This document shows, piece after piece, positions 3,103 to 59,941 of a stretch of DNA of 64,000 nucleotides. The stretch spans positions 101,866,001 through 101,930,000 of the forward strand of contig OX597814.1 in assembly GCA_951406725.2 (NCBI GenBank). Direction: 5' to 3'. A program made the translations under genes and the position numbers. Each line of letters starts with the position of its first letter. The first letter of the stretch is position 1. Under the pieces are notes generated by a model. It saw only the letters and a program-made list of their open reading frames with translations. It was not told where the DNA came from and did no database searches. This DNA comes from Octopus vulgaris (taxonomy: Eukaryota).

Positions 3103-3246
3103 GCATCTGAAAAAGACACATCTGACGGTGCTCCATCTGGTATCAGAAGCGTTAAGGACCAAGCCAAACATCTGAACAAACTACAATCAGAAAGTGACCT
3201 GCTGAAACTAACTAGCCGAAAGCATGACAAATCAAAATCTGACAAA
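3103..3246 (+). CDS. sowah: Internal coding exon (144 nt, phase 0-0) of a SOWAH-like ankyrin repeat protein: ASEKDTSDGAPSGIRSVKDQAKHLNKLQSESDLLKLTSRKHDKSKSDK
   Basis: ttttgcAG acceptor (3101-3102), GTAAGC donor at 3247, open frame with protein-like composition. Linkage to the downstream ankyrin exons is inferred from strand and phase. Confidence 0.75.
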
Positions 3247-12480: not shown

Positions 12481-13415
12481 TCCACACACACACACACCCA
12501 CCATTATTTACCATTTCTTCTCCACCCCCCAGCCATACCTTATTTAAAAGTTGAAAATATTGATCTGAGAAACTAAGCTAAAATAAAACACAATAACCAA
12601 CACTCCCATTGCACTGTCTCTCTCTCTCTCTCTCTCTCCTACCACCCCTCTTCTCTCTTTTGACATTTGCTTATTATGTATATACTGACTTATTAACCAT
12701 ATATACAATTAGCATGTCTTTGCACCTTGTATTTCACAACATGGAAAATTAATTACACTTGCAGTTTCTCGGTTCTCGTTACCAATCATGCATGGTTTTG
12801 TAGCCTGTTCAATTTACAATGTTGTTATTGTTGATTTTTGTTTTGAAAGAAAAATGTTTATAGATTTTTTTTTTCTATCTTTCTTTTGTCTTTCGGTTGT
12901 TTTTATTAAATATTGTTTGTTTTTCTGGCTTGATATTTCATTTTGCTTTTTTTTTTTTCAGCATTCTTTAAAGATTCTAAAGGCGGGTATACTCACACAT
13001 TTGTATAAATTCTTTACACACATATGTCAAAAAAGGGGAGCTTCAAAGGTTCTTGTTGTTTAGCCCCAGGTCAATGCTGATCAAGGAGACTTGTGATTAA
13101 AAGCATTCCTGTTGTAACCATTTCATCATTTGGGTTAGATCTAGAACTATATTATCTAATATACCATATCCTTTATTTAAAACTGTAGATGTATGGTAGG
13201 TAATGTGAAGAATATTTGGTTGCTATTTCTATCAAACTGATACACCACCATGTAAAGCCTTTCTCACTGGCTCAACCTTAGAAGTTGCTTAAACTATTTA
13301 ATGTATCAGCAAAATCAACACACTCATTTATCATTTTTAATGTTTTGGGGTTTTTATTTTTAAATAGGTATCTCTTAATTCAAACAATACAACCACTTGA
13401 AAAAGTCTTTATTAA

Positions 13416-20743: not shown

Positions 20744-23310
20744 ATCATCATCATCATCATCATCATCATCATTTAGCGTCCGCTTTCCATGCTAGCATGG
20801 GTTGGACGGTTCAACTGGGGTCTGGGAAGCCAGAAGGCTGCATCAGGTCCAGTCTGATCTGGCAGTGTTTCTATGGCTGGATGCCCTTCCTAACACCAAC
20901 CACTCCGTGAGTGTAGTGGGTGCTTTTTACGTGCCACCCACACAGGTGCCAGACGGGGCTGGCAAACGGCCACGGACGGATGGTGCTTTTTACGTGCCAC
21001 CAGCATGGGGGCCAAGCGAGGCTGGCAATGGCCACGAACGGATGGTGCTTTTTACATGCCCCCAGCACGGAGGCTAATCGGGGCCAGGCGCTGGCAACGG
21101 TCACGATCGGATGGTTCGCTTACTTGTCACCGGCACTGGTATCACAGCTGCAATTTCCATTGATGTTGATCGACTTCGATTTTGGTTCTGCTTTCTGATA
21201 TCTGATTTGATTTGATTTGATTTGGTTTTCACTTGTCTCAATGGGTCTTCACAAGTGGAGTTTTGTGTCCCAAGAAGGAAAGGTATGTATAAGTCTCTTG
21301 CACACCACAACTGATGCTTCTTAGGTCCAACTTTTCTCTCAAGGTACTTACACTCTGTCGAGTATGAATACTGATATTACACATCCATCGGAGCATACTG
21401 GCTTCATTTCTTGCAAGCTTATGCATATCCTCAGCAGTCACAGCCCATGTTTCACTACCATGTAGCATGGCTGTTCGTACACATGCATCATACAGTCTGC
21501 CTTTTACTCTGAGCGAGAGGCCTTTTGTCACCAGCAGGGGTAAGAGCTCTCTGAACTTTGCCCAGGCTATTCTTACTCTAGCAGTTACACTTTCAGCACA
21601 CCCACCCCCGATTTGATTTGATTTGATTTGGTCACCTAGGTAGTGGAAGCTATCAACTACTTCTAGTTTTTCTCCCTGGAATGTGGTAGAAGTTGGTCTC
21701 TGCACATTTTCAGTGTTTATTGCTCCTAAGCATCTGCCACAAACAAAAACTATTTTCCTAGTTAGCCTTCCTTTGACATTGCTGCACCTCTTATGTGTCC
21801 ATAGCTTACACTTGGTGCATCTTATAGAGTTTCTACCTACACCTTTTCTACAGATCGAGCAGGGCCATCTACCTGAAGGCGTTTGTGATTGGTCTACCTT
21901 CCTACTTATTAGGACTTTGGTTTTGGCTAGGTTGATTCTAAGGCCCTTCGATTCTAATCCTTGCTTCCACACCTGAAACTTCTCCTCCAGTTCTGATAGT
22001 GACTCAGCAGTTAGAGCAAGGTCATCAGCATAGAGGAGCTCCCAGGGGCATCCTGTCTTGAATTCCTCCGTTATTGCCTGGAGGACTATGATAAATAGGA
22101 GGGGACTGAGGACTGAACCTTGATGGACCCCAACCTCTACCCAGAATTCTTCACTGTACTCGTTGCCAACCCTCACCTTACTAGCAGCGTCTCTGTACAT
22201 GGCTCGCATAGCTCTCACTAACCATTCATCTATCCCTAGTTTCCTCATTGACCACCAGATAAGGGATCGGGGGACCCTGTCGAAGGCTTTCTCCATGCCA
22301 ACAAAAGCCAGGTACAGGGGCTTATCTTTGGCTAGGTATTTCTCCTGCAGCTGTCTTACCAGGAATATAGCATCAGTAGTACTTTTCCCTGGCACGAACC
22401 CAAACTGCATCTCATCTAACTCTCTCTCTAATTAGTTGGGCTATAACCGTCTCCGTAACCTTCATTACCTGATCCAGCAGCTTGATACCCCTGTAGTTAT
22501 TTGTATCTAGGGCGTCACCTTTACCTTTGTAGTAGTTGACTATTATGCTGCTACACCAGTCATTGGGAATGACTCCTTCGTGTATCACCTGGTTAACTAT
22601 ACGGGTGACTAGGCTATAGCCGACACTACCAGATATTTTGAGCATCTCTGCAGTAATTCCTGATGGGCCTGGGGCTTTCCCTGTTTGTAATTGCCTTAAC
22701 TACTAAGGAACTGTCAACTTGGATTGCTGGTCCCTCTGTTGGGTTAACAGACTCTCTTTATCCCATTCATTTTCCTTATTCAGCAACCTTTCATAGTGGC
22801 GTCTCCAAACCTCCCTATTTGCATCCTCATTTAGCGCAAGTGAACCATCATCCTTGTGAACACATTTCTCTCCTACCATGTCACGATTCTCTCTCACACA
22901 CTGTCTTGCAACACGAAATACCTCAAGTCTTTCATCCTCACAGCGCAGAACATTGGCAAATTTTTTCTTAACTGCTTCCCCTCTGGCTAAATATACCTGC
23001 TTCCTAGCTTCCCTTCTGGCAGTCTGATACACTTCCCTGCTACCACCGTTCTTCCAGTCCTTCCAAGCCTGTTTCTTTTGTCTAATAGCCCTGTCAACAA
23101 TATTGTTCCACCACCACGTTATTTTGGATCTTGAGGGGACTTTGCACCAACCACAGATCTGGTCAGTGGCTCTCAGCAGGTTGTCCCTTAGAGGCCTCCA
23201 GTTGTCTTCTACCCCATGTGAAGCTATACCCCCTTCTATTTCGTCAAAGGCTTCAAGTAATATGTCTCTAAATTTCTGTCCATTCGCAGGATCTTTAAGC
23301 TTCCAAGCTA
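20744..23310 (-). mobile_element. 5'-truncated RTE-clade LINE with near-intact RT domain, frameshifted; nested in a family-A SINE
   Basis: ORFs 22703-23310, 22412-22645 and 21238-22410 carry YRGIKLL, QFGFVPGKST, KAFDRV, VHQGSVLSPLLF, LYADDL and FHYLG. The 3' UTR ends in (GAT)n at 20744-20772. Host SINE halves lie at 20510-20740 and 23330-23552. Confidence 0.95.
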
Positions 23311-23335
23311 TATATAGGTTTAAGCTATATATATG

Positions 23336-23377
<42 letters not shown>

Positions 23378-24499
23378 CACTCACACACACAACAGGCTTC
23401 TTTCAGTTTCCATCTACCAACTCCTCCTCACAAGGCTTTGATTGGTCCGAGGCTATAGTAGATGTTTGCCCAAGGTGCCACACAGTGGGACTGAACCCAG
23501 AACCATGTGGTTTGGTAAGCAGGCTACTTACCACACAGCCACTCCTGTGCCTGTTATTTGTTCACATTCAGATTGTTGTCTATTACTTCAGCTAGTACTT
23601 CACATTTGTTGTATTTCCTGAATACAGAAAACATGCTCACATTTTGTTCCAATGAGATATTTTTGTCATTGTATGCAAATTATTTTAATTGCAGGAGATT
23701 CTTAATTCCCAATATTCATTACCAATATTCATTAGTAAATATAATTTTTCTTATGTTGACTTTAAGACAGTGTATTTTAGATGCAGAAATTATTTTTATT
23801 CTTTCTGATCAAGTCTTACTTAACTTTCAGTTGAAGATTTTAAATCGTTAACAGCTTATTACTGAAGCAGCTAGAATATTGATTCTTATTATCTTACATT
23901 AAGTACAATTTTATTTAACTAATGCATCTATAATATTCCTTCATAACCTTTCTTTCAGTTTTGTTTAGTACTTTGTCTAGTTCATTAATTCTTAATTATC
24001 TCTGTCAGTCTTTGGTTTAATTATCTTATCTCTGTGCTTTATCTCACATATAATTTTTTTTTTTTTTTAATTAACTTTCTTCTCAGCAGCTACCTTAAAT
24101 GTACTTTTTACAAATTGAATTTCATATCAATTTTGTGGCAGAATTTGTTTATTTTTATGTAACGGCTGCTTGCTATCTGTAGCATACAACTTGAGGTGAC
24201 CCATATACAAAACCTTTGTATTGTTCTTCATTGTTATTATTTTTATTTATATATCTAGAAACACAAGATAGGAGAGACAGTTAAGCATTAAATCAAAATG
24301 TGTTTACTATTTACTTTCAGCCTCTGACATATTGCCAATGTCAACTTTTCCTGTTGTTCCTTTATAATTTAAACAATTAATGAGTTTTATTCAATCAGCT
24401 GTATTCTCTTGCTACAAGATTTCATCTCATGTCTAATCAAAACATTGTCATTTTTGTTATCATATCCAGCTTGACATTTCATCATCTTTATCATATTGC

Positions 24500-27400
24500 A
24501 TTTTGTTTTTCCATAGTTCGTTATCCCTTATTTCAGCCCCTATTGATGAGGTTCATCCTGTTAAGATCAGCTAATTCTTCTTTTGTCTTTTTCAATCTTA
24601 TTCCAGAGGCTCCTTCTCCACAGAGCACTTGGTATTTCTTTATTCAACTGTCATTCTTAATGGGCATCACATGTCTATACTAGTACAGTTTATCTGATTC
24701 TTCTTGTACTTAGTTTTTCTCATCTCATTTGTTCATTCTTTATGTGCATAAATATTATGAAATCAGTGGAGAATAGTTGCTTCACTTCTTTCTAGCTTTT
24801 GCACTCACTTTATATCCTGTATCATTGTTGAACTACCCGTACAGTATCACACTTCATATGCCAGCCTCATACGATCTATCTTTCACTCAGAGAGTGAGTT
24901 CGTTTGCTGCCAGCAGAACCAATGCTCCTTTGGACTTTTTCCATTCTATTTTCACTTTTGATACCATGCTTTCAGATTATCTACCACCACTATTGATAAG
25001 GTCACTATGGCAACAAAAACTGTCAAAAGAGCCTTCTGGTTATTTGAAGAAACTTGTTTCACTCACTGCAAACTATCTCTGTTCACCTGTTATATACAAA
25101 GTCCTTTTCTATCAGACCATGCATGATTCTGTTGCATTTCTTTTACACCCATAGCCTACACACTGAAGAATTCATATTTAAAATTTTTCTACATATCAAG
25201 CATGACTATTTTATGGATTGCAGTAAAGTTCTATATTCTTTCCTTGAACCCCTTGCCTGGCAATGGCAAGATATCTCGTTTTTGACCTTTTTCAGAGTTG
25301 GACGAAATACCTCATCCAAAAGTTATTCTCTCAAATAATGGCTGGGACATAATATCTCATCTAACTCAACTCTACAGCACTTTCCAGTATGTTTGTCCCA
25401 ATCATGCATCTGGCAGTGCATCACACCATTCATGCTCTCACTTTAGCCAAGTGATTCATGTCTCACATCATTGCACTTACCAGTCAGTCATCATTAGCAC
25501 ACACATACATGTATATGTTTGCTCATTCTAAGGACACATTTTGCATTTTTGCTTTTATTTTTAAAATGAGCAGCGACAGTGAAATTGATGATGTGGATTT
25601 TGCTAATCTGGACTCCTCAGATTCTAGTGCAAGTGAATAGGATCCAGAAGTTACTGTCCCAAATGATGATGATGATAATAATAATAATGATGATTCCTTG
25701 CTTGCTGCCAGACAATGGTATCAGCTTCCTGTTGGAGATAATCTTGCACCTGCTTCTCTACTATTTCCTTTTGTTGGAGACCCAGTAATATCAATTGATG
25801 GTGATGTATCAGAAATGACTCCTCTTGATTTATTTCCCTTTATTTTGATGATGATTTAGTTGATTTTGTGTGCAGTGAGATAGATTTGCACAACAAACTT
25901 CACCTAACGATAAGAATCGGCACCCTGTTACAGTTAGAGAGATGCATTTATTTTTTGCTGTGAACATGCTTGGAAGTATAATAAATGCACCAGATTTGGA
26001 AATGCAGTGATCAAAGCATCCTCTTCTTGAACAGCCAATTTATGCAACTATCATGTCCCTGAAGCGATTTTGTAAGATTAAACAATATCTACATTTTCTT
26101 GATAATCACTCTTATGACAAAACAAGTCACCCACATCCTAAGTTGCATAAAATATATGATATATACTCTAAGCTACAAGAGAAGTTCCAGAGTTTGTACA
26201 CTCCAAAACGAGACAATTCTGTTGATGAAAGCCTCATTTTATACAAAGGCAGATTGGGTTGGATTCAATATTTATCCTTGAAGAGGAATAGATTTGGAGT
26301 TAAATATTTCATGTTATGTGAATCTGACTCTGGCTATGTGTGCAAATTTATGATTTATTGTGGAAAGGGAACCCAAAATGGCAACAAGTATCAAGAACTT
26401 ACCATGGCACCATGAATAGTGATGAATCTCATGGAACCTTTGCTGAGAAAAGGATATTGCCTAACTGTGGACAATTTTTATGCTTATCCAGAACTAGCTG
26501 ATATTTTAGTAGCTAATTACACAGAATTTCCAGGAGCAATATGAGTCACAAGAAAGGATTTTCCAAAAGAAATCAAGCAAGCAAAGCTAAAAATAAGGTG
26601 AAATTTGTGCTTTTCAAAGAGGAAAGGTGATGGCACTAAAATGGAAGGATAAAAAAGATGTTACTATGATCTCTACCATTCATAATCCATCTATGATAGA
26701 TGTAAGCTTTCCAAGGAAACAGATAATAAAGCCACAAGTGGTTTATGATTACAACTTCACTATGGGTTGAGTTGACAAACTTGACCAACATTTGGTTGAT
26801 TACCCCTGAAAATGTGGAAGGAGATATTACAAGGTGTTTTTTCACATGATAGACTTGGCAGTGTGGAATTCATAGATACTTTATAAAGAATCATTGACAC
26901 AAATGAGACACAGCAAGAATCATTGATACAAATGAGTCACAGCAAAACCAATGTCTGATATGAAATATAGACTTGAACTTATTGATTCCCTCTTCAAAGA
27001 AAATTATTTTGATGTTCCTTGTTGAGAAGCTGGAAGACCATCTTCATCTCACCTTACTCAGTACTCATATGGACATTTTCCCATGGATATTCCTCCTAGA
27101 GAAAAGGGGAAATTTCCCTCAAGAAAGTGTGTGCAATGTGCGAGGAAAAAAACAGGATGCCTATGGAAAACCAGTTCGCAAAGAATCCCATTATATGTGT
27201 AAAATTTTCAAAGTTCCATTATATGATACTCCAGGTTTTGAAGCATTTTATTCAAAGTAGCCATGTAATGAAAGAGAAGTACTACAAGTAAAGCGAGTAA
27301 TGTTTCTTTACTTTTATTTTATCCCTTTCTTTTATTTAATACACTCTTTCCAATTTTTTCCCATTTAATTTTTTGTTTTTTACAGAAGCTGAGATATCTC

Positions 27401-28544: not shown

Positions 28545-28598
28545 AATAAAGATGGTGCTGATGATGATGATGCAAATTCCGCTGGTGGATTTGTCACA
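28545..28598 (+). CDS. sowah: Coding exon (54 nt, phase 0-0): NKDGADDDDANSAGGFVT, acidic linker before the ankyrin region
   Basis: Pyrimidine tract plus ttgcAG (28543-28544); GTAAGT at 28599; 18 open codons in frame with the next exon. Confidence 0.8.
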
Positions 28599-28779: not shown

Positions 28780-29377
28780 AAAACTTATTTAAAATATTTG
28801 GTGTATGGTAGAAGTATAAGCTATTACATACAAATTTTAACTCCAAAATTTTATATGGATCCTCAAGAGCCATATGGACCCTGGTTGAGAACCACTGATC
28901 TAGAGAAATATTCAACAGAGTATTGCACTTGGTCATCTGGTGGTCATCAAGAAAACCAAGTGTAGATAAATGATTCATACTGAAAATTAGCAAGTTCAAA
29001 GTAGAATTTACCCAGCTGATAGGAATCCATCAAGGCTTAGTTCTTAACCTTTTCCTTGTTTTATTATAGCTCTTCAGGATATAGCAGAAGTTTCAACTGG
29101 CAGTTAGGGATATTTTTTCTGTTTGCTCATAAACTAATTCACACATATGGCTCTTGAGGATCCATATAAAAGTTTGGAGTTAAAATTTGTATGTAATAAA
29201 TTGCTTATACTTCTACAATACACCAAATATTTTAGATAAGTTTTTTTTTTGTACAATTCCAAATAATGTTTAATTATAAAAATATTAAACATGGAATGGT
29301 TATGAGGATCCATCTGATTGAAACAGGAATCAAGGGGATCCAGAGGCAAAAAATGGTTAAGAATCACTGCTCTAGAT
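28780..29377. mobile_element. hAT (Charlie/Buster-type) MITE with CTCTAGAT target duplication, rearranged by inversion, inside an RTE remnant
   Basis: Ends CAGTGGTTCTCAACC (minus strand, from 28897) and GGTTAAGAATCACTG (ending 29369); flanks ATCTAGAG (28898-28905) and CTCTAGAT (29370-29377). Confidence 0.75.
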
Positions 29378-29803: not shown

Positions 29804-29905
29804 CTCTCTGATGAGCAAAAAGTTTGGATGAAGCAGTCAGCTAATTGTGATTATCAAGAACTAAGTAAACTTCTATCAAAAAATCCGTCCCTTGCTAAAG
29901 AGAGG
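29804..29905 (+). CDS. sowah: Coding exon (102 nt, phase 0-0): LSDEQKVWMKQSANCDYQELSKLLSKNPSLAKER
   Basis: U-rich tract plus aacAG (29802-29803); GTAAGT at 29906. The L-x-x-x-x-x-x-W-M...D-Y..L..LL..P.LA..R pattern matches the segment I recall preceding the first ankyrin repeat in SOWAH proteins. Confidence 0.88.
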
Positions 29906-33358: not shown

Positions 33359-33370
33359 AGTTTTATTAAT
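33359..33370 (+). CDS. sowah: 12-nt microexon AGTTTTATTAAT = Ser-Phe-Ile-Asn
   Basis: AG-free zone 33269-33356, ccAG acceptor (33357-33358), GTAAGTAAA donor at 33371. Supplies the family DFxx-equivalent residues in frame. Confidence 0.8.
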
Positions 33371-35011
33371 GTAAGTAAAGAAATTGTCTCCATTCTAATT
33401 ATCATAATGCTTTAAAATTATTTTCCAGTCTTTTTTTTTTTTTTTGCTAATTGTTAGAAAATGAATGCATTCTACTTTGTTATATGCAATCACATGTGAA
33501 ATGCAACTCCTAAATATAAATGGAAACAGATTGAAAATGTTAACCTTTAGTTTGATAAGACCCCACATTTTACAAAACCTCATTAAGTTTGTTTGAGACC
33601 TAGAAGTGAACCTTTGTTATATTTTTAATACAATCATTTTAATCTCACTCCCTGCTGTTTTTGCCATGGTAATTACTAAAAGTAAAATAAGGCATAAATA
33701 TATAGAGAGCATTGTTTAAAAATATAACTAAAGCCTGCATATGGCCCAACCAATGCCGCTATAGAACATGTATGTTAAATGATGATAATTTTATATATGT
33801 GCCCATATCCATTAGAGTCCAACAAACTGTCTATAAGGCTAAGCGCTTTATAGATGCAAAACCATTGGTCACTCTATGACTGGCCATGTAATTAACTTCC
33901 TATAAATTATATATATATATATATATGTATGTATGTACGTACACACACACATGCGCACACACACACACACACTCATAGAGAGAGATAGATGTGGTTGCGT
34001 GGTTAGGAAGGTTACTTTTAGGTTTAGTCTCATTGTGTGGTACCTTAAGCAAGTGTCCCTGTCATATAAGCAGTGTTATTCATTTCTAATTTTTCGTGAA
34101 AACATGCCTGGCAATGGGACAGTATTATCTTGCTTGGAAACCGGTGAGGGTAGGCAAGAGAAAGGACATCCAGCTACAAGTAATCTGCCCCAATAAACTC
34201 TGAGCCTTGTAGGCATGGAAAAGTAAACATTGAAAGAGCTTTCAGCTGTAGGAAATCTGCATCAACAAATTCAATCTAACCCAAGCGAGCACAGAAAAGT
34301 GGATGTTAAATGATGAGTTTTATAGTGATGATGATGCTGAATCGCAGTAGAAACTTAGTCAAAAGAAGCAGGTTGTACATATAGTAATAGTCAACAATTG
34401 GTGAGCCCTAAATGACAGTCAATAAACCCAGCTCTGACTTCAACATAGGATGGCTTCCATTAGTATATATATGCTGAAATTTAATATTTATTCTATGCAA
34501 TGGTGGCATGATGATTAATAATGACACTGAAACCCAGTCTAGAGTTCAAAGACTAAAGAAAATTAGATAATAGATTGATCAAAATGATATGAAGAATAAA
34601 GATACATGAATGAGGAGAGTAACACTTGAGAGCATTTAATTTAGTTTAGCAATAACAGATGTAAGAGATTCATTTGTATAATCAGTCTCAAGGACTTTAG
34701 AGAAGAGTTGAAAGAGATTAGCATTTAAGATGCTTTTCTAAAGCTGGAATACCTTATGTCATTAACTGAGAAATTTTCTTGAGAGGATAAGATTTTCTTT
34801 TGCTTTCTAGGAATCTGGAATAAAGGTAAAAACAAATTATTAAAATTGAGACTGAAATTGTGTGGCAGCGTAATTTTACATAATGTATGTGTTATGTCAA
34901 GCCACAATTGGAAAGAGACAAATACACACACACACATGCACACACACAAGCAAGAAATACCTATCTGTCTGTAATTTTCTCGCCTCCCTCTCTCTCAGTA
35001 TATATATATAT

Positions 35012-36003
35012 ATCATCATCATCGTTTAGTGTCCGTTTTCTATGCTGGCATGGGTTGGACAGTTCGACTGGGGTCAGGAAAGCCAGAAGGCTGCACCAGA
35101 CTCCAGTCTGATTGGGCAGTGTTTCTACAGCTGGATGCCTTTCCTAACGCCAAGCACTCCAAGAGTCTAGTGGGTGCTTTTTACATGCTACCAGCACGAG
35201 AGCCAGTCAAGGCATTGCTGGCATTGGCCATGTTCAGATGGTGCTTTTTACATGGCATTGGCACAGAAGCCAGTCAGAACGAGGAGGCTGGCATCGACGA
35301 TGTTCTGATGGTGCTTTTTATGTGTCACCAGCAAAGGGACCACAACTACAATTTCCATTTGATTGTAATTTGATTTCATTTGATGTTGCTGTATTTGACT
35401 TAGTAGTTCTCCTCAAGCATGGCATGTTGCCCTATGATCCAAGGGTACTTTTGAGTTGGCTGGTTATGCGACACTGGTGTAGGTTACAGCTATGATCTCC
35501 CTTTATTTGCCAGGTCTTCTCAGTCACAGCATATCTCCAGAGGTCTCTGTCTTTCGTCATTTCCTCTGTGAGGCCCAGCATTCAAAGGTCATGCTTCACC
35601 ACCTCATCCCATGTCTTGCTGGGTCTCCCTCTACCCCGGATTCCTTCCACTGTTTGGGAGTGACATTTCACACAGCTTCCCTCATCTGTCCGTAATACTT
35701 GACCATACCAGCGCAAATGTCTTTCTTGCACACCACGTCCAATGCTTCTTATGTCCAACATTTCTTTCAGGGCGCTTACACTCTGTTTGTGTGTGCACAC
35801 TGACATTACACATCCAGCGGATCATGCTAGCTTCATCTCTTTCGAGCCTATGCATGTTGTCAGCAGTCACAGTCCATGTTTCACTGACATGAAGCATGGC
35901 AGTTCGCATACATGCATCATACAATCTATCTTTCACTCTGGGCAAGAAGCTCTTTGTCACCAGTAGGGGTAGAAGCTGTCTGAACTTTGCCCAGGCAGTT
36001 CTT
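35012..36003 (-). mobile_element. 5'-truncated RTE LINE 3' kilobase, flanked by (TA)n
   Basis: ORFs RVKDRLYDACMRTAMLH..ETW and RWYGQVLR...RGRGRPSKTWDEVV; 3' UTR and (GAT)n tail as in the 20744 copy. Confidence 0.9.
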
Positions 36004-36840
36004 ATATATATATATATATATATTGTATATACAAATCACTCACAAGGCTTTGGCCCAGAAGGTACCTGCTCAAGATACCATGCAGTGGGACTGAACCTGA
36101 AAGCATATGGTTAGCAAGCAAACTTCTTAATCACACAGCTACATCTGCACATATATATATGGGTGCAAGCATGGTTTTATGGTTAAGCAGTTTGCTTCCC
36201 AATTACATGGTTCCAAGTTCAGTCCCACTACATGGTACCTTGAGCAAATGTCTTCTATAACCCTGGGCTGACTAAAACCTTTAAGGGATTTAATAGTTGG
36301 AAACTAAAAGAAGCTCGTCTTTGTGTGTGTGTTCTTGTCTTGACACCACCTGATAGTTGTACATGTGTGTCACTATCACACAAGAAATGTTATTCATTTC
36401 CAATCTTCTGCTAAAACATGTTAGGTCATGGGGAAATAACCTTGCTTGGAAATAGATGAGGATTGATGACAAGAAGTTGCATCTGGCCATAGAAAATCTT
36501 CCCTGATTAACTCCATCCATCAAGTTTTTTCTCACAGAGCACTAGTTAATTCTAGAATATAACAGAGGACACTTAGCCAAGTGGAAACCATGGAAATCAC
36601 ATGGAAACCATGCTTTTTGTGTTGACTATTATAGTATTCAGAGGGATAGAACATTGAGTGCTTAGTCAATATACATTGCTTTGTATCAATATCACAATGT
36701 GTATATGTGCTTGTGTATATTTATTTGTTTAGCTGTAAGAGAAGCTGATGATCAGTCAAAAATTGTAATATATGTATAATGTCGTTTTTCTTTCATATTT
36801 TGGTATTACTGTTGAATTTCTGAATTTGGAATCACTTCAG

Positions 36841-36843
36841 GGT
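36841..36843 (+). CDS. sowah: 3-nt microexon GGT = Gly
   Basis: AG-free zone 36756-36838; cacttcAG|GGT|GTAAGTAAA. Supplies the conserved Gly of the ankyrin G-x-T-[AP]-L-H motif in the correct order. Confidence 0.75.
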
Positions 36844-39453
36844 GTAAGTAAATTTTCTTTTCTCATTGTTAAAAAAAAGATATGCAAATCTTTGAAATAA
36901 CTCTTTATATTAAAAGCCTCCCTGTTATAATGTATCTGGGTCAGTTGTTGGCAGTAGGAAAGAATAATACTGAGGCCAATTAATTTGCATTCTGTCTGAA
37001 AGTTGTATCAATAAGAAGCCATTGTAATAAGCTTAGTGTTCCTGTATGACAAAGCTCTCATTTATCAATTAATCTTTTTCTATTCACAACAAAATGTGTT
37101 TCTACTAGAACCAACAACATTCTCAGAAATTATTGGAAAATGTTGAGTACAAATGTTTATCTCGTGCATGGAGATGTTCCAGGATTTGATCTAGTGTTTT
37201 AGAGTTATTTGATTAAAACTGATTGGCATGGGGGTTAGTTTCCGAAGCAGTTTTTACAAATCTGGAAAATATAGTTTTCTTTTTGTAATTGAATAATGAA
37301 AATAGAAATTAAGTTTTCAAAAATCATTTTGTTACTCTTCAAACTTTAGTTGCAATTACTCCCTGTCTACTTATTCAGACATGGTTCTTTTCTGCTGATG
37401 GGGGCTGCTAAATTACATATGGGACTTAAATATGCTTTAGTGGGGTTGAAACTGTTGTCAGTGCACAAACAAGATCACTATCACTGTGCCCAGTGGTAAG
37501 CTGGCAAAATCATTTGCATGCTGGACAAATTTTGCCAAGGTCAACTTTGCCTTTTATCCATTTGGAGGTCGATTAAATGAGCACCAGTTGAGCTCTGGGT
37601 CAAAGTAATTGACTAGCCTTATCCTCCCAAATTGCTGGTAAAAAAATTACTGTGCCCAACAAAGGCATAACATTTTCACTCTACTTTGCTTATTTCTTTG
37701 ATGATTGAATTTTTCTGCTAAATTGTGATGTAGCTTCATCAATGCTGAGAAGAGTAGACTTGTCATACAATTTTTGAAATTTTGCTTTTCACTTGCTTAG
37801 TCTGTCCATCCTTGCTAGTGAAGCTTCTTTCCCACATCTTGCCTATGACTTGTTAAGGTTAGAGTTATGGATTAAGATAAACATGCATTGTCCATTTCGA
37901 AATGATATTTACTGTGATGATTATTTTAAAAGACATCATCATTGCAGGTGGAACCACTTCATACGAGTGTCATCTCTTGTGTTCTTAGAAATATTATATT
38001 TCAAGAAAGTTTCTTATTAGAATATAGTATATATTACATAGTGTTTTGTTGTGTGAAGCGCAGCGTATCACTATATGTATTTTGCATTGTATGCCTCAGC
38101 CTTTTTGCTATTGCATTGGTTGGAGATGATCTTTTTATTAATAGTTATATATTAATTTAGTACATTAAGTGACAAAGTGAAGATAGCCACTCAATATGAG
38201 TTTGAAACATGAAAAAAAGCAGTATGATGCTGAAGAAATTGTAGGCTTTTATATGCATGTGTTTTGCAGATGTGGTGGCCAAACACAGCAGTAACTATGA
38301 CCTGTAGTCAAAATTGAATAGAAGTCTGTAAAAGATAAAATGATATTAAAGCTGGATTCATTCATTAAGCACTGCAGTCTTGCATCACAAAGTTGTTCTT
38401 AACCTAGCATTCTTCAAGATATATGCTTAAGATTAGTTACACATAGCAAGCCTAAATTAAGTATCACTGGGCAGGCCCTTCTGACTTAGCAGCCCTGAGA
38501 CTATAGAAAAGAGTGCAGTCAAGGACATTTGATGTTAATATCTTGAGGCAGATATCAGCTGAAAAGAAAACCCCTAAAACAGAAACCTTAGAAAGCCCTA
38601 GATGTTTGGAAAATATTTTATCAGCGACCTATGCTCTCAGAGACGATGTGATCGATGTGATTAATAACACCCTAAGAAATAAAATGAAACCTATTATTCA
38701 GTAAAAGAAATTAACCCTTTAGCATTCATACTACTCTGTCAACTGTATTACTGGCACTCCATCAATTACAATGACAAGGGTTCCAGTCATTCCGATCAAG
38801 GAAACGGCCTGCTTGTGAAATTAACGTGCAAGTAACTGAGCACTCTACAGACACAGTGTGTGACAAGGCTGGACCTTTGAAATACAGATACTACTCATTT
38901 TTGTCAGCTGAGTGGACTGGAGCAACATGAAATAAAGTGTCTTGCTCAAGGACACAATGTGTCACTGGGAATTGAACTCACGACCTTGCGATCATGAACC
39001 AAATACCCTAACCACTAAGCCACACACCTTCACTGTGTGTGCCAACTATAATGCTCGGTTATTCACATTGTTTTGTGGTTTTGAGATTTCAGTGATGTGA
39101 TTGTTTATTTTACAATGACATTGTAGAGAAGGTGTAAGAGGTTGGATACAACCAGTTTGAACATTAAATGGGTGAAATATTTTGGCCGGATATGACAGGT
39201 TTAAATGTTAAAGGGTCAATGTGCCTAATAACATTTTGTATCTGACATAGTTTGAGCTTATGTTCTATGATATTTGTACTCTTAATATATTTAGTTTAAC
39301 ATAAATTTATGTCTGTATGCATGCATATATATATATCTGTTAATTTTTTAATGTATTTCATACTTTTCTCACTACTCTCTTTTCATTTTTTTTTTTTTTT
39401 GATTTGCAAATTTATCCTGGAACTCTGAATATTTATTTGGTTTCCTCAAACAG

Positions 39454-39456
39454 TAT
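39454..39456 (+). CDS. sowah: 3-nt microexon TAT = Tyr
   Basis: AG-free zone 39295-39451; ctcaaacAG|TAT|GTAAGTAAA. Supplies the aromatic residue of G[YF]TALH in the correct order. Confidence 0.75.
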
Positions 39457-44114: not shown

Positions 44115-44214
44115 CTCATCAAGCCTTGAGATCAATAAACTACTGTTCATTAACTAACACAAGGCTGCTCTTTACATATAGAAGTATTTCTTTGTTTCTG
44201 ATATAGTTAACTTC

Positions 44215-45110
44215 TCCACCACCACTCCTATTACATCACCTTCACCATCACTATCATTGCCACTATCATCAATTCATTCACCACCGTCCCTGTCACCTCT
44301 GTGCACCTTTGTAACTACTACTGCCTCCATCACCACCATCATCACTACTACTACTACTGCCACCATCATCACTACTACTACAACTAACACCACCATCACT
44401 ACTACTACAACCTCCACCATTACTACCTCTTCCACCACCATCGCTACTACTACTGCTACTACCTCTTCCACCACCATCAACACTACTACTGCTGCTAACA
44501 CCTCCACCACCATCACTATTACTACTAACACATCCACCACCCCCATCACTACTACTACTACCTCCATCACTATTACTACCTCTTCCACCACCATCACTAC
44601 TTCTACTACTACCTCCACCACCATCACTACTACTACTGCTACTAACACCTCCACCACCATCAACACTACTACTGCTGCTAACACCTCCACCACCATCACT
44701 ATTACTACTAACACATCCACCACCACCACCATCACTACTACTACTGTCATCGTTGCTGCTATGATGCATCTTTTGTTGCCATAACAGTCACTCTCACTGT
44801 TGTTTTTGCCATCATTAACACTATTACCTTTGTCATTACCACCATCACTATAGCAGTCACTGCCACCACTGCTTCCTTACGACCACTACTACTATCACTA
44901 ACACCATTATCTCACTCATTACAATAGCCATTTCTCTATTACTATTATCATCATCACCACCAGCACTATCCATCTATCACTACTATTATCACCATCACTA
45001 TCACTTCTCTATCACTAGTATAACTCTCCCTACCACCACAACTACATCTCTATCACTACTATCACCACCACTACTGCCACTATTAGTAATGCTATCCCTG
45101 TCACAACTAC
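44215..45110. repeat. Cryptic trinucleotide (ACT/ACC/ATC) repeat array with an internal ~70-bp duplication
   Basis: caccaccatcaacactactactgctgctaacacctccacc... occurs at 44469 and 44654. Confidence 0.9.
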
Positions 45111-57880: not shown

Positions 57881-58915
57881 AAGATCATAAAGTTGATTGT
57901 TGATGTTGTTTACTCCTGCAGGTCAGCTCTGGTTGAGCTGACCTATGATCAAAGTTGTTCCAGCCATGATCATCCGGTTTTTCTGTATATAAAGGACTAC
58001 ATTATTCAATGTATCCTTCTTTATTTAAATCAGTAATTTGAAGAGGATTTAGCTACCATTTCTAGTAGGTCAAGCAACTTTGTTGGACTCCCTTGATTAA
58101 CCCTTTAGCATTCAGATTACTCTGTCAAATCATCATCATCATCATTTAACATCTTTTTTCCATGCTGGCATGGGTTGGATGGTTTGACTGAAACCTGGTA
58201 AGCTGGGGAGCTGCACCAGGTTCCAATCTGATTTGGCATGGTTTCTACAATTGGATAACCCTCCTAATGCCAACCACTCCAAGAGTGTAGTGGGTGCTTA
58301 TTCATTTACTTTGTTTTGAATTAATCATGCATTTTCTCACAGCTTTGAGATTTCATTGATGTGATTGTTTAATCTTATAATGATATTGCAGAGTAGGTTT
58401 GATAAGCTAGACATGGCCAGTTTGAACATGAAACAGATAGATTATCTGGGCCAGATATGGCCAGTTTAAATGTTAAAGGGCTGAAGTATCCCAATAACCC
58501 TTGAGATAATAGCAGTGAGGGCCGTTGTTGGATAATTAGCCAGGTCAGACATGCTCTCTTTTGGAGCTATGACATGGGACTGCCATATATTTCCACTAGT
58601 TGGAGTAGATGTTGTAAGCCTCTACTAGAATTGAACTTTTGCTCATACTCATTTCACATATATACTTTTGCTGATATTTTATTTTTGTGTATTTTTTATA
58701 AATATTTTTTTTGCATGTTTTATTGAAACATTCCTGTGATGATTCATCTAGAGTGATAACACAACATAAGATGCTCACAAACAATGAATTAAAATTATTT
58801 ATAATTATTTTATTATTTAAAATTATTTATAATAAATAACAATGTTGATAACAGTAATCTATTATGTGACTTATTTTTAGTTTGTGCTTACAAATCGAAA
58901 TAATTTTCTTTGCAG

Positions 58916-59005
58916 ACTGCACTTCATTGGGCAGCAAAACATGGCAAACCAGATGTTGTTAAATTATTGTGTGGAAAGCCTGGTGTTAACGTGGACCAAA
59001 AAACA
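58916..59005 (+). CDS. sowah: Coding exon (90 nt, phase 0-0), ankyrin repeat core: TALHWAAKHGKPDVVKLLCGKPGVNVDQKT
   Basis: ttttctttgcAG (58914-58915); GTAAGT at 59006. Ankyrin consensus TxLHxAAxxG..VVxLL...GxxVx; TALHWAAKHG is typical of the SOWAH family. Confidence 0.92.
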
Positions 59006-59941
59006 GTAAGTATTGTTTTGTTTTGATTATGTTTAATGAGAAATATTGCATGTGGACTAAAAACATAGACATAGCTGCATAATAGTCCTTGTGGAGAAAT
59101 TGTGATATTAGAGAGAGAGAGAGAGAGAGAAATGCATGCATTTTGTGGAATATTACTGGAGAGTTATATAATAACTCATTTGTGATACACTCCAATAAAC
59201 ATCCCTGATACGAATATGCATGGAATGGTAGTCCAGAGGAAAACTTTGTTGACCAGCTCTGTATGGACATGAGATGTTGGTGTGCTGACTTCATGGTCTT
59301 ATGCAGGATCATGAAGGTTCATGAAGTTAGGCCAATCCAAGCAAGCTCAGCTTACTTTTCCTCAATCCTTAGTATCATGTTTCACATTTTACTTTTTCAT
59401 GCTGGTGCAGACTATATTTGTAAACTATTCTCACTCTTGTTTTACATTGGAGAAATATGGCTGTCAGGCTAATTCGTTATATTCACTTTAACGAAATTCC
59501 TGAATAACACAAAATGTTGTGGAACCTTTCATATTCTTCTATATAAATCATGCCCATGGGTATTTATGTCAATCTTTTCAATACTCTTTAACACTATGAT
59601 TTAATAGCACTGCTAACACAGTAGAACACAGTATTGACTTATAAAAGCTTTAAATGTACTTTGTAATATATTATGGTTGCATAACGAAATGCAGTTCTCA
59701 TACAGGTCATTAATAAGTGATACGATACAAAACTGAACAAATTTGATACGATACGAAACTGAACAAATTTTATCCTTTTCATATATGACTGGTGAATCAG
59801 CTGAAGCCAGTGCATCACTGTTCACACATACAAGTCTACAAGTGGTAGACTCTGCTTGCATATTTCAAGTCAGCAAGTCATTTTGTGATAGATTTGGTGT
59901 CTCAGTTGACACTTCTGGATTTGTTATATTATCATCATTGT

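Follow-up and report, generated by a model that had tools for sequence, protein, structure and literature searches.

Microexons and the coding of two ankyrin loops in the Sowah gene of Octopus vulgaris

Sowah (sosondowah) is an ankyrin-repeat gene carried on the + strand of a 64,000-nucleotide (nt) stretch of Octopus vulgaris DNA, called the window here (contig OX597814.1, positions 101,866,001 to 101,930,000; C1:101866001-101930000). In this gene, two successive ankyrin loops contain residues whose bases are spliced in between ordinary exons. The inserted bases, 18 nt in loop 1 and 6 nt in loop 2, are directly present in assembled transcript-type contigs, and their genomic source is strongly inferred to be five named microexons of 12, 3 and 3 nt (loop 1) and 3 and 3 nt (loop 2). 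The best-supported explanation, held with considerable confidence, is that these exons form an ancient, mostly constitutive phase-0 chain that encodes normal ankyrin loops and is not a combinatorial switch.

Five microexons in two ankyrin loops

Loop 1 lies between two ordinary exons separated by 29 kb. Exon A (29804..29905, + strand, 102 nt, 34 codons, phase 0/0) was placed by tblastn and encodes two helices that precede the first ankyrin hairpin in the structural model. Exon B (58916..59005, + strand, 90 nt, 30 codons, phase 0/0) is covered by RNA-type contigs and encodes the first full ankyrin repeat. In the interval, three phase-0 pieces on the + strand, each with a CAG acceptor, a GTAAGT donor and its bases in RNA-type contigs, span 6.1 kb: a 12-nt microexon for S-F-I-N (33359..33370), a one-codon exon for Gly (36841..36843) and a one-codon exon for Tyr (39454..39456). 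An earlier note on this DNA had proposed exactly this chain, and the two exons and three pieces lie in phase 0 where it put them. It had also claimed that their products join exon A to exon B as SFIN-G-Y; the exact 18 bases are found in the contigs of all four runs.

Beyond the earlier note, the next ankyrin loop is also assigned to two one-codon exons, which lie outside the window, downstream of exon B and 2.2 kb apart on the + strand. RNA-type contigs and splice sites place the Phe exon at L002:4315-4317 (C1:101934315) and the Ala exon at L002:6542-6544 (C1:101936542). All five loop exons preserve the reading frame, are in phase 0 and have a GTRAGT donor. By length (at most 30 nt), canonical AG/GT borders and presence of their bases in transcript-type contigs, they are microexons, and four of them are single codons arranged in one gene as two consecutive pairs.

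Of the 23 runs listed, four, each belonging to a different study, supplied the contigs, which were placed on window positions 58700-59250. In all four runs they cover exon B and end at its borders; one run adds a low-depth intronic contig. In every run, the 30-letter loose end before 58916 starts with the final 12 bases of exon A and continues with the 12+3+3 bases that had been predicted. The loose end after 59005 consists of six additional bases (Phe, Ala) and the initial 24 bases of exon C, which lies further on beyond the window (C1:101940680, + strand). The RNA check proposed in the earlier note therefore returned the predicted insert in all four runs, and not a direct junction of exon A with exon B.

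Gene models treat these exons unevenly. The six residues SFINGY are present in all five retrieved RefSeq isoforms of O. sinensis and absent from the O. vulgaris model CAI9715648.1, which also lacks the two residues of the next loop; the annotation miss foreseen in the earlier note is thus borne out. The O. bimaculoides gene is split into separate N- and C-terminal models, of which the N-terminal one (XP_052823847.1) has SFIN and then runs into the intron with 14 codons identical to those of the window. Argonauta and Bulinus models, like that of O. vulgaris, are without both loops. Sowah thus exposes a systematic annotation error at tiny exons.

An AlphaFold2 prediction for the O. sinensis protein, built on a 48-sequence alignment, has a predicted local distance difference test score of 97-98 in the loop region. 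Residues 279-284, the product of the 12+3+3 chain, sit between the beta-bridged residues 278 and 285 and are predicted to form the hairpin preceding the first full ankyrin repeat. In the same model, the loop ahead of the next repeat holds Phe315 and Ala316. The Gly of loop 1 is at least 90% invariant across the 48 aligned homologues. Inter-repeat loops of ankyrin proteins contribute to their binding face. When the O. vulgaris annotation, which lacks the loops, was modelled, the helices were retained and the bridge of the first hairpin was lost, with only slightly lower confidence; such a prediction leaves undecided whether skipping would be tolerated.

Part of this picture is already known: the 12+3+3 layout is annotated in FlyBase for the Drosophila orthologue, a point beyond the earlier note, and RefSeq already has the residues for O. 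sinensis. What is new is the RNA-type support from a molluscan gene, the placement of the exons on the genome, a loop 2 in 3+3 form that brings the gene to four one-codon exons, the AG-free-zone signature described below and the gap in the O. vulgaris gene model. A literature search, with Maeso et al. 2012 (Genome Res 22:642) and preprint supplements outside its coverage, found no paper discussing Sowah microexons; the Maeso study reportedly deals with the structure of the Sowah gene, and the exons may already be described there.

Genomic source and splice-site anatomy

The pieces that could supply the inserted bases were enumerated by partitioning them into AG..GY segments, with consensus defined as a YAG acceptor and a donor with at most one mismatch to GTAAGT. 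For the 18 nt of loop 1, no one- or two-piece solution exists in the intron. Eleven three-piece solutions exist, and only the one at 33359, 36841 and 39454 (12+3+3) has consensus sites throughout. The 6 nt of loop 2 have no one-piece solution and six two-piece solutions, and in every one of these L002:6542-6544 supplies the Ala codon. For Phe there are two candidates with good donors: L002:4315-4317 and window coordinate 64363, the latter with a near-consensus donor. The former is preferred because a competing AG stands just a few bases before the latter. Candidate arrangements rejected for lack of a canonical solution were a single 18-nt or 6-nt exon and, for loop 1, two pieces. A tandem NAGNAG acceptor as the source of Ala was also rejected: the acceptor of exon C contains no such tandem, and a 3-nt exon of its own fits the Ala.

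Chance expectation for YAG-NNN-GTRAGT sites was obtained from a third-order Markov model of the 264-kb region. In the 29-kb intron 0.26 such sites are expected; for Gly codons the expectation is 0.010 and for Tyr or Phe codons 0.029. One Gly-type and one Tyr/Phe-type site are observed, in the required order. Across the 264 kb, there are eight sites on the gene strand and two on the opposite strand, against 2.4 expected per strand, and four of the eight are the four one-codon exons.

The small exons share an acceptor region without AG. This AG-free zone measures 88 nt before the 12-nt exon, 83 nt before the Gly exon and 157 nt before the Tyr exon. When the five loop exons were taken together with a 21-nt exon of the same gene, the zone ranged from 83 to 157 nt before all six, compared with 13-81 nt before all 12 other acceptors (exact Mann-Whitney p=5e-5). 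A zone of at least 83 nt is reached by just 2.4% of the 4289 YAGs within the gene. Motifs resembling a branch point (YTRAY) lie just upstream of the zone edge at -96 for Gly, -105 for Phe, -101 for Ala and -172 for Tyr, whose zone has more of them inside. A TGC is found 18-21 nt upstream of three of the six small exons and at -49 in one, with none within 60 nt in the other two; TGC upstream of acceptors occurs at ordinary exons too.

These features suggest how exons of 3 nt could be recognized. The loop microexons are best read as ordinary spliceosomal exons, included together in the main mRNA. Recognition probably depends on two features: intronic 5' splice sites that match the full consensus (GTRAGT at each of the five exons), and a branch point set far back, some 85-110 nt or more before the exon, behind the long AG-free zone; together, the distant branch point and the strong donor would leave the spliceosome space on either side of a 3-nt exon. 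This proposal is in line with accounts of other systems, in which the branch-point-to-acceptor region of vertebrate neural microexons is lengthened (PMC12871342) and short exons are proposed to be recognized first at a strong 5' site (PMC10250204). The main role of the microexons is probably structural, to supply normal ankyrin hairpins; copies that lack the microexon introns make the same loop.

Age of the layout and competing explanations

In Drosophila melanogaster, sowah (CG10632, FBgn0036302) has FlyBase-tagged microexons of 12, 3, 3, 6 and 27 nt, according to Table S4 of PMC8042270; ME119, ME3, ME2 and ME19 are names given to fly sowah microexons in Tables S4 and S5. Two of the ten 3-nt exons on sheet 1 of Table S4 belong to this gene, and all four of its loop microexons are on the constitutively spliced sheet of Table S5. 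Their products, C-P-A-T, G, Y and N-G (12, 3, 3 and 6 nt), align with octopus SFIN, G, Y and F-A. The orthologous genes thus share a 12+3+3 set of phase-0 exons for one and the same stretch of six loop positions, with Gly and Tyr as its last two residues, and a second loop that is also microexon-encoded. They differ in that loop 2 is one 6-nt exon in the fly and two 3-nt exons 2.2 kb apart in the octopus, in that the loop-1 exons span about 4.2 kb in the fly and 6.1 kb in the octopus, and in that one O. sinensis isoform omits the second loop-2 exon. Because octopus and Drosophila have the 12+3+3 layout in common, it dates at least to the mollusc-arthropod ancestor, and because it is already in FlyBase for the fly gene, it counts as an old trait of the family, not as a peculiarity of the octopus.

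Protein lengths in other animals fit such a chain. Among 143 proteins fetched, 97 had both anchor motifs and were counted for loop-1 length: the loop is full in 64 and in a further 10 of vertebrate type, longer for other reasons in 2 and short in 21. The short ones lack six residues (4 proteins), five (3), two (4) or one (10), and none lacks three or four; they include models from Argonauta, Bulinus, a scorpion, the hemichordate Saccoglossus, flies and mosquitoes. By comparison of the sequences, these gaps fit gene models that would have lost units of a 4+1+1 chain.

Other animals also carry the loop in one piece. The metagenome loci compared were the best 80 of 348 by score, a ranking that favours unbroken copies, and many of them may be transcripts. 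An acceptor AG stands at the matching boundary in two (L108 and L112), where the contig ends too near to show upstream microexons, and one locus (L082) has a loop-1 break of another kind. Tetrapod Sowah genes are described as retrogenes in PMC5803294. Together with the unbroken copies, these indicate that the protein does not need the split layout.

Several observations weigh against an ancient, mostly constitutive chain or limit how far it extends. The run labels read 'RNA?' in three cases and '?' in one, which has a different organism code, and none is recorded as RNA; even so, contigs in which exons 29 kb apart are joined are spliced. The coded runs carry no tissue labels. Contigs omit rare variants and carry no inclusion levels, so that 'mostly constitutive' in the octopus is inferred from four majority contig paths and the fly data. 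One of the five O. sinensis isoforms, X3, lacks the Ala of loop 2, the only hint of regulation, which could also be an alignment artefact. The Phe candidate at 64363 is disfavoured by its competing AG only, and no YTRAY was found at the edge or inside the zone of the 12-nt exon. Three of the ten proteins short by one residue (P0043, P0066 and P0051) have a three-residue first block, a misfit to a dropped Gly exon, and may be true variants. For animals other than this octopus and the fly, protein gaps are the only guide to exon structure. Loop 1 is unbroken in 77 of the 80 metagenome loci, and several Sowah copies on metagenome contigs (for example L084, L087, L097, L103 and L105) have introns elsewhere and none in loop 1, which suggests that some animal lineages have lost the microexon introns.

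Three other explanations compete with a constitutive chain. In one, the five in-frame exons are regulated micro-switches: any one or several of them could be left out, giving up to 32 forms, perhaps in neurons and governed by a factor of the SRRM/eMIC type, and the length of the hairpin tip and hence the binding partners would change. All five exons are indeed frame-preserving and in phase 0, they encode inter-repeat loop residues, which in ankyrin proteins belong to the binding face, X3 lacks Ala alone, TGC lies 18-21 nt upstream of three of the six small exons, and the predicted structure without both loops retains its helices. However, full inclusion is the assembled path in all four runs, the fly counterparts are constitutive in the tables of PMC8042270, and the loop-1 Gly is nearly invariant. 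The short forms in databases are mostly genome-based models and are explained by annotation misses; in the pair P0061 and P0026, which have the same flanks, the transcript-type record has the full loop. General regulation of this kind is accordingly judged unlikely. A narrower variant, possible though doubtful, is that a fly-like 6-nt exon was split into two one-codon exons in the octopus line and that the Ala exon, and maybe others, became a regulated one-residue switch at an ankyrin loop tip. If the Ala exon were regulated, it would be a one-residue switch on the ankyrin binding face, and the octopus would tune a binding surface residue by residue atop a microexon chain kept since the bilaterian ancestor.

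The remaining two explanations concern where the bases come from. A piece of three bases is not uniquely mappable by sequence, and the 11 and 6 enumerated solutions leave room for other genomic pieces (chance AG-NNN-GT matches), non-canonical splicing or RNA editing. That source is very improbable: one loop-1 solution alone has consensus sites throughout, few background YAGs reach the AG-free zones of the named sites, and fly loop 1 has identical lengths and phases. An assembly artefact, either a true contiguous 18-nt exon or a second gene copy that supplies the transcripts, has next to no chance and is largely refuted, with no point found in its favour. Exon B has a single match in the genome, the introns hold no contiguous 18-nt or 6-nt piece with splice sites, and the independent O. 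bimaculoides model breaks right after the 12-nt exon and enters the matching intron.

The Sowah locus and related systems

Sequence similarity identifies the gene as the intron-rich Sowah of the octopus, as the earlier note had claimed. A search with exon A returned two proteins among 15 candidates, each an Octopus SOWAH protein, and a homologue search with the octopus protein returned SOWAH proteins from cnidarian to mammal. Protein P0003 has Pfam Ank/Ank_2 matches, with repeats in its C-terminal half that include the conserved TALHWAAK repeat. Its precomputed annotation has the N-terminal SOWAH winged-helix domain PF25877, whose exons map upstream of the window; PF25877 was absent from the analysis's own Pfam scan of P0003, although the AlphaFold2 model has a folded domain (residues 8-77) at the winged-helix position. 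The coding exons extend over ~160 kb, between -36884 and roughly 123150 in window coordinates, and CAI9715648.1 agrees with the window at residues that differ in O. sinensis.

Other + strand coding exons in the window are a 144-nt exon (3103..3246), found by tblastn with P0003/P0005, its borders and alignment, and skipped in O. sinensis X5 and O. bimaculoides X2, and a 54-nt exon (28545..28598), found by tblastn and its borders. The 21-nt exon (12962..12982, + strand, seven residues) is an alternative microexon, defined by isoform comparison and splice sites, whose donor is GC and whose AG-free zone measures 96 nt; its peptide is present in O. sinensis X1-X3 and absent from X4/X5 and the O. 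vulgaris model. After the ankyrin exons lies a 33-nt phase-1 exon (C1:101975013-101975045, window coordinate 109013); in fly sowah, a 27-nt microexon follows the loop exons, and homology of the two is a possibility only. A later intron holds a 5-nt AG..GTAAGT island (C1:101950717-101950721, window coordinate 84717) with a 119-nt AG-free zone upstream. The island is not represented in any retrieved protein and would break the frame, and is therefore possibly a poison or regulatory microexon.

The introns also contain repeats: a broken retrotransposon of the long interspersed nuclear element type (21238-23380, - strand) with a reverse transcriptase match (PF00078), a DDE transposase fragment (26011-26415; PF13843), and, between the 54-nt exon and exon A, an element resembling a miniature inverted-repeat transposable element (28780-29244) with inverted arms of 55 nt (98%) and 53 nt (89%). 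A low-complexity, trinucleotide-rich repeat of ~700 nt (44182-44876) produces long spurious reading frames.

An Iroquois-type TALE homeobox gene (L022, C1:100147142) lies on the opposite strand, head to head with Sowah and 1.68 Mb upstream of its start; another (L023, C1:112123598) is about 10 Mb downstream of Sowah and a third is on C30. The Iroquois label of the neighbouring homeobox, which is putative, comes from a motif and a high-scoring Atlas lead; NCBIfam and PDB searches place it in the TALE class, with no finer name. As far as the cited accounts go, Irx-Sowah linkage holds in most bilaterians (Kerner 2009, PMC2674049), and Iroquois enhancers are housed in fly sowah introns (PMC12311624). 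The octopus arrangement resembles this regulatory block in having an intron-rich Sowah and a putative Iroquois-type homeobox head to head on the same chromosome arm, and differs in the distance of 1.68 Mb, while tetrapods have retrogene copies instead. Iroquois enhancers inside Sowah introns, which would make these introns hard to remove, may be the reason why the microexon layout has persisted, as the literature on other animals suggests; enhancers in the introns would help retain the intron-rich copy and its microexons.

Consecutive one-codon exons are near the physical limit of exon recognition, and Sowah offers a natural system for studying how 3-nt exons that directly follow one another are defined by the spliceosome, including splicing order and branch-point distance. 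In schistosome micro-exon genes, the majority of the coding sequence is in microexons, whereas those of octopus Sowah make up only 24 nt (the five loop exons) and 21 nt (the 21-nt exon) of ~1.5 kb. Neural SRRM4/eMIC microexons, as far as described in PMC10250204 and PMC12871342, are likewise very short and in frame, with strong 5' sites, a lengthened branch-point-to-acceptor region and products at protein-interaction surfaces; they are tissue-specific, whereas inclusion in the octopus appears general and in runs of three and two. Parallels in exon size include the Drosophila homothorax micro-exon (PMC7392893) and the cytohesin Gly microexon (PMC6314551), each with one codon per exon and canonical sites. 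Both are reportedly single alternative exons, whereas octopus Sowah has four one-codon exons in two consecutive pairs.

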